From Gammaproteobacteria bacterium (GTDB taxonomy: Bacteria > Pseudomonadota > Gammaproteobacteria > UBA1113): a DNA stretch of 64,000 nucleotides. Shown piece by piece: positions 18,001 through 21,000 of this stretch. The stretch spans positions 1,172-65,171 of the forward strand of contig JAJFKH010000104.1 in the NCBI GenBank assembly GCA_021773305.1. Direction: 5' to 3'. How positions within the stretch are numbered: position 1 is the first letter of the stretch; each line of letters begins with the position of its first letter. A program made the position numbers.

Positions 18001-21000
18001 GCGAAATTTCTCTGATTATCTTTACCCAGATAGGCGATACTCAGTGCTAACAACTGGGTTACTAGGGTTAATTGCTCCGAAGTAAGACAGGAAGCGTGGT
18101 CAAGCATCTGGGTATGCCATCTACCATCTTGTTGATTAACTTCACCAAATCCAGCAAATTCATCCTGGCTACTATCTTCATCCTGGCTACTATCTTCATC
18201 CCGGCTACTATCTTCGTTTACGTTATCTGGTGAAGCTAGTGGAATCTCGCTGCTTTGCCCAAAATTAGCAAAGCCGCCTTGTGGAATGTTATTTTGGGCA
18301 TCTGAGGCATCATCTAGCTCAAAGGCAAAGGCAAAGCCATCTGTTGGGCCATCAAGGATGTCATCTTGTTGGTCACCCTTTAGTTCAGGCTCTTCTTGTA
18401 GAATGTTGTCTTGCGGATTTTCTATTGGCATTTTATCCCCCTTATGCACGATAAAAATTGTTATTCTTTCGTTGGGTTAGAATTGGAAGTTCAGATTCTA
18501 CAATAGTTTATACCTCTTTGTCTACTTTTCCGGCATATCTCTTTCCGACATTATGGTAATCCTTCACTCATTTCATTGGATAGTTACGAATTTCGGTAAA
18601 TTAACATTGATTTACCTCTAAGAACGCTCTAGAATTCCTTCTGATCCTAAGAAATGGCCAGATAGCTCAGTCGGTAGAGCAGTGGACTGAAAATCCTCGT
18701 GTCGGTGGTTCGATTCCACCTCTGGCCACCATTAACCTGTACGTTTTGGAGGACAAAATGGCCGCAACCGTTGACGAACTCACTATCCAGTACGAAGAAG
18801 ACGGTACTGTGACCGTCAAAGAATTAGACAAAATTGTTCTCACTAAGGGCGCATGGTCAACGATCATCTACAAATACCAAGATTTGAACCGGAAAACCAG
18901 CGAGTATGGCCCAAATAAATACAGCATTCGTCGCTACCAAAAGCGAAATAACGAGTACTTCCAAAAATCCAAATTTAATATTTCAAGCAACGATCAAGCC
19001 AATAAAATTATCGATGCGCTGACCCAATGGGTAAATGAAGCCGACGCAGCTCCAGAAAAAAGCGACGATTAACCGCAGGATCTGGGTTTAATAAATTGCC
19101 TCTGACGCCTGCGCTTCAGCCTTTTTTCCGTGATTATCTTGAATCTCTCCCTCTCCCAGCTGATTTTGGGATTCCGGCTTATTAGTAAAATAGTTTTTAT
19201 CTACATTTTTCAGAAACTTAGCCACAGCAACCATTAGGCAAAGACTGCCTAACATGATAAACGAAAGGCTGAGTAGAGCAGATCGCACCGGATCAAACAT
19301 TAAATCAAATACTGTTACGCCTACACCAAAAATAATGGCTCCACACCCTACAATTCCAAAAAACCATTCGCCTGTATCTTGGCTCTTTTTACCACTGCTC
19401 ATGCTAAACACCTTATAAAATCCATCCGTACTTATTCTATAGGAGCCGCGGCACGGGTCAAGCTTTCAGCTCCCATTCCATAAGAAAATCTAGAGAGCTA
19501 TCTTCGAGGATGGCTTCTGCATCAACATTTTGTACGGCTGCGCCTATGCCTTGCTCTTGCATTAATGCCTCCGGGAGGGTATTGCGATAATTAGAAACCA
19601 TCAAATCCCCAGCACGCACCGCAGGACAACCTTCAATAGAAACATTCGGAGAATGGGTTATAAATTCAGCAATTCCTCCTACTGTAAGCGAAAAAATGCC
19701 TCCGTATTGACCCGCTTCATCTCCAGAACTTTTAGCGAAATAGGAACGGCTATGACTCATATTTTGCCCACTAACAAAAACTCTACTCGCCGTATTTTTC
19801 ACATCACGGCTAAAGGCTTTGTTAGGGTAAGCAACGGGGATCCGTTCGTCTCCGGTCATATTGACGCTGATGGTATTTAACACACCGCCGCTTCGAGCAT
19901 GCACCGCAGATTTTCCATTTATGAAAACAGGCATTTAATTATTATAATTTAATTTATATAAATAGCAAATTCTATTGACTAATACCTCAGTGAAAAACCA
20001 TACGATTTCTAGGCTAATCCTTATTATCTATCACAAGTTTGCCGTGGGTCTCTTTTAATAGAGCCGCCAATACCACACTCAATATAAGTGCAATAGGAAT
20101 AACCAGCATGGCATAACGATAATCACTAGCCGAGTAATGAGGCACCCCATTAACCATCACACCATTCCAACGATAATCTAACATGTAACCTATAATCGGC
20201 TGAAAAAAGACCCCCCCCAGCATCACCATGCCGTTTGTGACCGCAATAGCTGTACCCGCAGCATTAATAGGACTGGACTCCCGCCCTACAGCGAAAACAA
20301 TCACTTGGGCGCTATAAGACGCACTCGCAAAAAAGAGTAAAGTACAAACCAACGATCGAGGTAAACCTGGCACATAGATAATCACCAGGAACAGCACTGT
20401 AGCGGCGGCTCCGCCAAACATCATGGGTAAACAACGCCGACGTATCTTATCGGAGATATAGCCATTGATTGGCGCTCCGATAGTAAAGCCTAAAAACATA
20501 GCAGAGATGGCTAAAGCAGAGTCCTCTGCTCGAAAACCGTATACACTCTGGAAAAAGGGATTACCCCACAACTCAGCAAAGGCTGTGGTGGGCAAATAAA
20601 GTAAGCAACCGATTCCTCCATTAATCCAAATTTGGGGATTGGTTAAAATTTTCCATAAGCTGAGTAATATGCTTTTAAAATCCAGGGCATCTCTTTCGTC
20701 TAACTCCTCAGCTTCTCGGCTACCATCACGAATGAATAAAAGCAAAATAATGGCTAAAATCACCCCTAGCGCCGCCGCTAGCACCATTGTTTTTTCCCAA
20801 CCAATATCTTCGACTAGGACTGTCAGGCCAATTTCACCAAACATGGCACCCACAGTCCCTAGGGCAGAGGTCAAACCTGAGACCATTGCAAAACGCTCTG
20901 GAGGCAACCAAATTGTCGCAAGTTTCAAAACCCCAACAAAGGCAAAAGCCGAGCCAAAGCCCATCAGGAAGCGACCAAAACCTACGATAATTAAATTGTG

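Follow-up and report, generated by a model that had tools for sequence, protein, structure and literature searches.

A toxin-less PIPY (DUF4150) protein in an uncommon, vgrG-unlinked context in a Dot/Icm-bearing gammaproteobacterium

DUF4150 domains, since renamed PIPY domains, are PAAR-like cones that lack the PAAR motifs and the zinc site and carry a P(I/V)P(Y/F) motif near the cone vertex; they form the tips of VgrG spikes, and the genes for VgrG, DUF2169 and PIPY proteins are normally neighbours (Sachar et al., J Biol Chem 2025, PMC11883445). What, then, is a PIPY gene doing in a stretch of DNA that carries Dot/Icm (type IVB secretion) genes and none for a type VI secretion system (T6SS)? 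The stretch, called the window throughout, comprises 64,000 nucleotides of an uncultured organism deposited as Gammaproteobacteria bacterium (GTDB lineage UBA1113; assembly GCA_021773305.1, contig JAJFKH010000104.1, positions 1,172 to 65,171). An earlier reading made from the sequence alone (the sequence-only reading) had seen in the PIPY gene and a small membrane-protein gene behind it a toxin–immunity-like layout beside tRNA-Phe, a possible island. We find instead that the PIPY protein, 158 residues long, adds a member to a known family, its gene being inherited vertically in an uncommon setting without a linked vgrG. The explanation that we favour, with moderate confidence, is a stand-alone PIPY cone that would cap a VgrG trimer encoded elsewhere, its tail perhaps serving as an adaptor.

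The PIPY gene and the gene for the small two-transmembrane (2TM) protein downstream of it both lie on the minus strand, which corrects an earlier description. The features of the PIPY gene are as follows.

19458–19934, minus strand: PIPY (PAAR-like, DUF4150) open reading frame (ORF); ATG start, 158 residues, coordinates including the stop codon.
19557–19934, minus strand: PIPY cone domain, residues 1–126; seen in the alignment, the AlphaFold2 (AF2) model, Foldseek and the proportions of nonsynonymous and synonymous differences (pN and pS).
19461–19556, minus strand: acidic C-terminal tail of the PIPY protein, residues 127–158; predicted local distance difference test (pLDDT) of about 50, no Pfam match.

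A search with PF13665 (Tox-PAAR-like) matched residues 23–120 to profile positions 8–107 of 108 (E = 1.8e-24, 86.4 bits against a cutoff of 31), which bears out the DUF4150/Tox-PAAR-like membership claimed by the sequence-only reading. For the same protein, the canonical PAAR model PF05488 gave 16.9 bits, under its cutoff of 27, and the NCBIfam model T6SS_PAAR_dom gave 19.7 bits against a cutoff of 124; canonical PAAR motifs are thus absent. An identical copy of the protein exists in public data. The conserved pattern had been described as ending at SPNVSIEG, with a short tail behind it. A short tail is indeed present, but the conserved domain extends past SPNVSIEG to about residue 126 (DLMVSNYRNTLPEALMQ), and the tail therefore comprises 32 residues. 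In an alignment of 50 sequences, the protein conforms at all 13 invariant columns and at 29 of the 31 that are nearly invariant, the two changes being Ala45 to Val and Cys60 to Ser. Its motif region reads IPVAY (residues 32–36), in which Ala takes the place of the second Pro while the first Pro, the Val and the Tyr are unchanged. The sister ortholog P0002 has IPVPY, and several members of the clade have the form P[IV]xY (IPVVY, IPVTY and IPIVY). Throughout the subclade of the window protein, Asn also replaces a second Cys (DVC.T) that is common in the family.

A structural model was built with AF2 on the same 50-sequence alignment (mean pLDDT 82.9; predicted template modelling score, pTM, 0.70). 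Residues 1–126 are beta-rich, with block pLDDT values of 78–97, and are predicted to adopt a PAAR-like conical beta fold. The top five Foldseek matches in the PDB are PAAR proteins (target-normalised TM-scores of 0.45–0.58): T4 gp5.4 (4ku0), a Klebsiella phage baseplate cup (9f4b), V. cholerae VCA0105 (4jiv), E. coli c1882 (4jiw) and a phage P1 baseplate entry, with probabilities of 0.97–0.99 for the first four and weak E-values. Furthermore, a family profile matches the N-terminal end of a T6SS Rhs protein (PDB 8qjc; E = 1.9e-21).

Is the gene still in use? Against its 67%-identical sister ortholog P0002, the cone domain has a pN of 0.152 and a pS of 0.726, roughly a dN/dS of 0.07; synonymous sites are saturated between the window and the sister lineage. 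For the same pair of lineages, pN is 0.123 in xth and 0.086 in the gene of the neighbouring major facilitator superfamily (MFS) transporter. The low ratio of the domain, near that of the flanking xth, shows that the PIPY gene is under purifying selection and therefore functional.

How it came to its present place can be followed in the block of genes to which it belongs.

21433–21684, minus strand: ribosomal protein L31 gene (ORF), the upstream end of the L31–MFS–(PIPY)–(2TM) block.
20014–21312, minus strand: MFS transporter of 432 residues (MFS_1, 139 bits), the conserved anchor gene upstream of PIPY.
19088–19402, minus strand: small 2TM protein, 104 residues from ATG, or 107 residues from a GTG at 19411.

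In the sister lineage (locus L002, ortholog P0002), the order YccV–Xth–L31–MFS–PIPY–2TM is that of the window, and L31–MFS–PIPY–2TM occurs again in L094/L095. An L31 gene (PF01197) precedes the MFS gene in L002, L090, L093 and L094, and the identity of the MFS protein to that of the window is 87% in L002, 61% in L094, 60% in L090, 59% in L093 and 52% in L088 (C-terminal half). PIPY adjoins the MFS gene in four lineages (the window, L002, L094 and L088), and the 2TM gene stands directly after the same MFS gene in at least five. The loci L090–L092 and L093 have L31–MFS–2TM without PIPY, with intergenic gaps of 48–73 bp; in L088, MFS–PIPY is followed by astA on the other strand, without a 2TM gene. 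In a neighbour-joining tree, the window PIPY groups with L002, L088/P0058, L094 and P0021, and this group is nested in a broader clade of 17 loci. By MFS identity, L094, which has PIPY, is nearest to L093, which lacks it (63%). This closeness, together with the clustering of the PIPY proteins of the window, L094 and L088, makes an old acquisition at the locus followed by losses the simplest history. The MFS gene is the anchor of the locus, with PIPY and 2TM each coming and going independently, and the shared gene order indicates that PIPY is probably a vertically inherited chromosomal gene at a conserved locus of an uncultured Dot/Icm-bearing (Legionellales-type) lineage. A metagenome scan with the subclade alignment found no relative closer than 56% and no further MFS–PIPY–2TM locus. 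The L31 proteins of the window and L002 have a C-terminal extension (...SQDEK), which is not seen in the orthologues of L090, L093 and L094.

The losses of PIPY in L090 and L093 raise the question of whether the window gene is itself a decaying remnant of a lost T6SS accessory locus, now without function. Neither vgrG nor DUF2169 accompanies it, it has lost two conserved Cys and the second Pro of the motif, and the L094 copy is more divergent (GDAAG, MVLN). Nevertheless, at least four lineages have an intact reading frame, the domain evolves at a dN/dS (about 0.07) like that of its housekeeping neighbours, 29 of 31 nearly invariant positions persist and a promoter-like site lies upstream. We consider decay most improbable.

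Is there a VgrG for this cone to cap? Pfam scans of about 55 ORFs of the window returned housekeeping, Dot/Icm and family-less ORFs only. Neither these scans nor hidden Markov models (HMMs), one built from 74 VgrG ORFs of related loci and one made likewise for DUF2169, detected a vgrG, DUF2169 or other T6SS gene in the 64 kb, in agreement with the sequence-only reading, which had noticed nothing T6SS-like in the window. Small ORFs without a Pfam match at 31–33 kb were considered as divergent Hcp proteins and rejected on inspection of their sequences and the lack of a Pfam match. For the family at large, a scan of GTDB species representatives, among which the window's own genome does not figure, yielded 80 PIPY loci, and linkage to vgrG and DUF2169 was scored with the custom HMMs within the fetched flanks (about 10 kb).

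Window's clade: 17 loci; vgrG linked in 0, DUF2169 in 4, either in 4.
Other family loci: 67 loci; vgrG linked in 41, DUF2169 in 42, either in 47.

The typical T6SS-linked layout is vgrG–X–DUF2169–Y–PIPY–large VasX_N-like effector. Members of the window's clade are of two kinds. The first are short PIPY proteins alone among housekeeping genes: after ruvB (L086), before valS (L089), or next to ccmB and a gene for a 1202-residue ankyrin protein (L005). The second are large PIPY–VasX_N fusions, one of them in a Coxiellaceae metagenome-assembled genome (MAG); VasX_N-like regions are known from T6SS toxins. In a single Natronospirillum MAG, a VgrG-linked PIPY locus (L008) occurs alongside an unlinked one (L007).

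Two of these loci deserve a description of their own. L085 (5069–8851) carries genes for a DUF2169 protein (228 residues), a thiolase-like protein of 326 residues, a 168-residue protein with a weak DUF2345 match, a PIPY protein (127 residues) and an unrelated MFS protein; there is no vgrG in the approximately 5 kb upstream of this mini-cluster, and the locus may stand midway between PIPY loci that are T6SS-linked and those that are orphans. Its MFS gene was considered as a second independent PIPY–MFS link and rejected, as the protein is only 26% identical and its gene lies on the other side of PIPY, a likely chance neighbour. In the Coxiellaceae MAG (L018, 504–5145), a 388-residue PIPY–VasX_N-like fusion stands beside a 1166-residue protein with two RNase III domains, a superfamily 1 (SF1) helicase and a CCCH zinc finger, a eukaryote-like architecture. 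A plasmid search found PIPY matches only in Vibrio, Agrobacterium, Pseudoalteromonas and similar hosts and on no Legionella plasmid, and the literature yielded no paper linking DUF4150 to Legionella biology.

In the mechanism that we favour, residues 1–126 fold as a small beta-cone, which in characterised relatives sits on the blunt end of the VgrG trimer at the tip of the T6SS spike. PIPY would work in trans with a VgrG, and perhaps a DUF2169 chaperone, from elsewhere in the genome, and the flexible acidic tail of 32 residues may act as an adaptor. The family, the fold, the purifying selection, the synteny and the lack of linked T6SS genes are shown by the analysis, whereas attachment to a VgrG from another locus and a role in a T6SS are what we infer. 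We prefer this explanation because the cone core is almost unchanged and under purifying selection, because unlinked PIPY copies occur in T6SS-positive genomes (L007/L008), because members of the clade are fused to VasX-like toxin regions and because a T6SS, or a partial T6SS with orphan VgrGs, has been reported in some Legionellaceae and Legionellales (bioRxiv 10.1101/2024.10.21.619444; 10.64898/2026.04.11.717937). Several observations weigh against it. The window holds no vgrG, DUF2169 or other T6SS gene, and in its clade no locus of 17 has a linked vgrG and only four have DUF2169. The second motif Pro, a proposed DUF2169 contact, is Ala, and two Cys conserved in the family are Asn and Ser. 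Moreover, the PIPY domain that has been tested requires its cognate DUF2169 chaperone to form the VgrG spike tip, and DUF4150 and DUF2169 genes are usually adjacent and occur 1:1 per genome (Sachar et al., 2025, PMC11883445).

An alternative, then, is that the lineage has no T6SS and has retained the PIPY cone over hundreds of millions of years because the protein does something that needs no VgrG, for example as a membrane-interacting factor that uses its hydrophobic PIPY face and is coupled in function to the MFS and 2TM proteins. The contrast in vgrG linkage (0/17 against 41/67) speaks for this, as do the many clade members that are single genes among housekeeping genes (L086, L089, L005), an MFS–PIPY adjacency kept across lineages at MFS identities of 52–87%, the strong purifying selection on the domain, the replaced DUF2169 contact residue and the lack of a match in the PIPY scan among the cultured Legionellales of the GTDB representatives. 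However, the conserved adjacency also takes in the functionally unrelated L31, and synteny alone is therefore weak evidence of functional coupling. The cone core is nearly the same as in T6SS-linked relatives, the clade also has PIPY–VasX_N toxin fusions, which require an injection system, and L085, of the same clade, retains DUF2169 and thiolase-like accessory genes. In addition, a T6SS is present in some Legionellales, and PIPY has been lost in L090 and L093 while the rest of the locus is intact. We hold a VgrG-independent job to be unlikely. In its fuller form, a PIPY clade uncoupled from VgrG and vertically kept in Dot/Icm-bearing, T6SS-less Legionellales would serve, without a contractile injection system, as a membrane partner of the MFS and 2TM proteins or as a Dot/Icm-delivered factor, which we likewise find doubtful.

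The last of these possibilities turns on the tail. Residues 127–158 include eight acidic and one basic residue of 32 and end in FLMEWELKA, and residues 130–158 are disordered in the AF2 model (pLDDT about 50). The tail has no Pfam or NCBIfam match and no toxin domain follows the cone, and the 158-residue protein is therefore not a toxin and most likely a spike tip or adaptor. The tail changes faster than the cone domain (pN 0.398 against the sister lineage). A W-[E/Q/D]-[L/I] motif near its end is common to P0002, P0058 and P0021, and L094 retains the Trp (EEWLIV). Longer T6SS-linked homologues also have acidic tails, some with a Trp at a similar position.

Could such a tail be a translocation signal, the PIPY protein being a Dot/Icm (type IVB) substrate whose cone acts in a eukaryotic host? 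The organism has Dot/Icm genes, part of a cluster lying at 57105–63808 on the minus strand: IcmJ/DotN (293 bits against a cutoff of 100), a 1005-residue ATPase of IcmB/DotO size with a weak VirB4 match, two small DUF6750/TraQ-like proteins, a partial IcmG/DotF-like protein with a long coiled-coil insert and a C-terminal TrbI/DotG (DotG/IcmE) domain. The IcmJ/DotN score, the DotG/IcmE C-terminus and the part of IcmG/DotF uphold the assignment of the organism to those with type IVB secretion. The DotG ORF measures 181 residues from a GTG, and the upstream part lies outside that single ORF. A Glu-rich 'E-block' has been described for Dot/Icm signals, and the PIPY tail resembles it: it is disordered, has eight acidic residues to one basic, and carries Asp or Glu at −10, −14 and −15 and Ser at −12 and −13. 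Similar acidic tails are nevertheless found in T6SS-linked homologues of free-living bacteria and of organisms without Dot/Icm, which makes the tail look like a trait of the family rather than an adaptation to Dot/Icm. PAAR is unmentioned in a structural atlas of 368 L. pneumophila effectors (text search). A Dot/Icm substrate is thus, in our judgement, very unlikely.

We return to the favoured stand-alone spike tip and ask what the gene behind it is. The remaining features of the locus are listed here.

19941–19968, minus strand: promoter-like site TTGCTA-16-TATAAT, just 5' of the PIPY start codon (consensus scan 10/12, pattern match only).
19434–19461, minus strand: promoter-like site TTGACC-16-TAGAAT, upstream of the 2TM gene (consensus scan 10/12, pattern match only).
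19062–19076, minus strand: weak hairpin resembling a terminator, with a T-run behind it, downstream of the 2TM gene (consensus scan).
18746–19072, plus strand: 108-residue ORF between tRNA-Phe and the 2TM gene, convergent with the latter, without a Pfam or NCBIfam match.
18656–18731, plus strand: tRNA-Phe(GAA), found by ARAGORN; a neighbouring gene.

All the elements that the sequence-only reading had named (the 158-residue PAAR-like ORF, a 2TM ORF 46 nucleotides downstream, the small ORF, tRNA-Phe and the MFS gene) are present as it described them, with one further adjustment. The two-transmembrane ORF on the same strand stands, but the 107-residue version from GTG, with its 46-nucleotide gap, is less likely than a 104-residue one: the start is most likely the ATG at 19402, 55 nucleotides from PIPY, which matches the public gene call and the sister lineage. 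Hydrophobic spans lie at approximately residues 13–36 and 41–64 in the 104-residue numbering (Kyte–Doolittle). The protein has no Pfam or NCBIfam match, is 63% identical to its counterpart in L002 and belongs to a rare family, with 15 relatives of 69–121 residues among 1.84 billion representative proteins (full HMMER search) that have the core FF..G..FG...LFDLM..P..SAL...G in common.

The model of the sequence-only reading, a polymorphic PAAR-like toxin with a two-transmembrane immunity protein on a tRNA-Phe island, has some appeal. The two genes are on the same strand, 46–55 nucleotides apart, with tRNA-Phe 357 nucleotides from the end of the pair, Pfam itself names the family 'Toxin PAAR-like', and relatives carry or precede VasX-like membrane toxins. 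The immunity proteins of such toxins are membrane proteins. However, there is no toxin domain, the 2TM gene occurs without PIPY (L090–L092 and L093) and PIPY without the 2TM gene (L088), and no homologue of the 2TM protein was found in the 80 other PIPY loci (phmmer, E ≤ 10), its only matches being in the same or the sister organism. As both genes are present or absent independently after orthologous MFS genes, there is no dedicated toxin–immunity relationship between them. The 2TM protein is, as far as gene content tells, a separate small membrane protein tied to the MFS gene and not an immunity protein of PIPY; synteny alone suggests that it is associated with the MFS transporter.

The island half of that model fares no better. 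The 25-nucleotide 3' end of tRNA-Phe occurs a single time in the window, even with up to three mismatches allowed; no flanking repeats were found, although a search aimed at an integrase was not made; and G+C is 0.40–0.45 over 18–21 kb, equal to the flanks. With no att repeat, no shift in composition and a locus that is syntenic in distant relatives, its block order kept in L002 and L094, we regard the model of a toxin–immunity island as largely refuted and scarcely credible. The small genes might have been expected to be missing in relatives, had they arrived at tRNA-Phe; PIPY and 2TM stay with L31–MFS in L002 and L094, and only the 108-residue ORF is lineage-specific, being present, among all fetched loci, only in L001 (the same organism). 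In L002, there is no tRNA within 215 bp after the 2TM gene; in L090, tRNA-Phe is found beyond the L31 end of the block, about 3.4 kb away and separated by three other genes, and so on the other side of it. The slot held in the window by a 460-residue acidic protein is taken in L090 by a family-less protein of 728 residues, the two not being homologous (E = 0.088). The tRNA-Phe neighbourhood looks like a rearrangement point with lineage-specific genes (the 108-residue ORF; the 460-residue versus the 728-residue protein), and PIPY and 2TM belong to the conserved side. Where the window has the 108-residue ORF and tRNA-Phe, L002 has a short palindromic element at 7340–7420 (GTCGTCATTCCCGCAAAGGCGGGAACCCAGGGAAT). 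The 460-residue protein (17067–18449, minus strand), between mutY and tRNA-Phe, is highly acidic and has no Pfam or NCBIfam match; three tandem units of 18 nucleotides at 18159–18212 encode a DEDSSQ repeat in it, and it could be a lineage-specific effector.

Elsewhere in the window, DUF4124 and glnA are preceded by five plus-strand ORFs without a Pfam match at 28808–32835 (322, 442, 157, 225 and 154 residues), some of them low-complexity or coiled-coil in appearance. L090 also has three small family-less genes by glnA, and the five are candidates for Dot/Icm substrates or lineage-specific genes. At 2342–4407 (plus strand), an enzyme of the MbnB/TglH/ChrH type (341 bits), which modifies ribosomally synthesized and post-translationally modified peptides (RiPPs), is followed by a DUF2063/NGO1945 partner and preceded by a family-less ORF of 152 residues, a possible peptide-modification cassette. 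A relaxase-helicase-like protein (TraI_2/TraI_2_C; 40710–42113, plus strand) stands alone among mlaA, spoU and an amino-acid permease gene. There are two AAA_14 ATPase genes, one at 27018–28157 (plus strand), which also has DUF4143, and one at 52918–54219 (minus strand), beside an SLT_2 lytic transglycosylase gene (54490–55488); L094 likewise has an AAA_14/DUF4143 and SLT_2 neighbourhood (8269–9522), a few kilobases from its PIPY gene.

What does the locus mean for the annotation of such genes? The apparent toxin–immunity pair on a tRNA island becomes a toxin-less spike-tip protein with an unrelated small membrane protein beside it, and both genes have long been part of the chromosome. For the family, one PIPY branch is systematically unlinked from vgrG (0/17 against 41/67) and is scattered among housekeeping genes; its hosts include Legionella- and Coxiella-like bacteria, which are known for type IVB secretion. 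If these lineages have a T6SS, the little-studied T6SS repertoire of Legionellales is extended and they offer examples of PIPY working without an adjacent DUF2169 chaperone. If they do not, a phage-tail-derived cone has found a new use, and a T6SS-independent role, if true, would be the first such function for a PAAR-type cone.

The proteins of this locus can be set beside known systems. Small membrane proteins accompany transporters, as AcrZ does AcrB and MgtS does MgtA. The 2TM protein, for which alone this analogy is drawn, is like them in being short, a two-transmembrane hairpin and encoded directly after a transporter gene; it differs in that it has no sequence relationship to any named small-protein family and that, in L088, the MFS gene stands without it. 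The PIPY protein has a domain homologous to the N-terminal PAAR-like domains of T6SS toxins (the Rhs protein 8QJC, Tse7, TseV, Tde2 and the PIPY–VasX_N fusions in L010, L011, L018 and L026), and those fusions fall in its own clade. Unlike these toxins, it stops 32 residues past the cone, without a toxin or Rhs part, and the gene after it is not a cognate immunity gene. Canonical PAAR proteins (PF05488; VCA0105, 4JIV; c1882, 4JIW; T4 gp5.4, 4KU0) are the best structural matches to the model, and their cone-on-spike role is the presumed ancestral function; nevertheless, PF05488 falls below its cutoff, sequence identity is 14–19% and the PIPY family lacks the PAAR motifs and zinc site (PMC11883445). 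Closest are the single-domain T6SS PIPY spike tips, examples being the PIPY domain of V. parahaemolyticus VP1415 and DUF4150 proteins from Pseudoalteromonas, Marinomonas and Alkalilimnicola loci (Sachar et al., 2025, PMC11883445). The window has none of their vgrG, DUF2169 or effector partners within 64 kb, its motif is PVAY and not P(I/V)P(Y/F), two conserved Cys are replaced, and its gene stands between those for an MFS transporter and a small membrane protein in a Dot/Icm organism. With them, at 45–59% identity, the window protein nevertheless has in common the same domain and predicted cone, a size class of 127–200 residues and a linker with an acidic tail.

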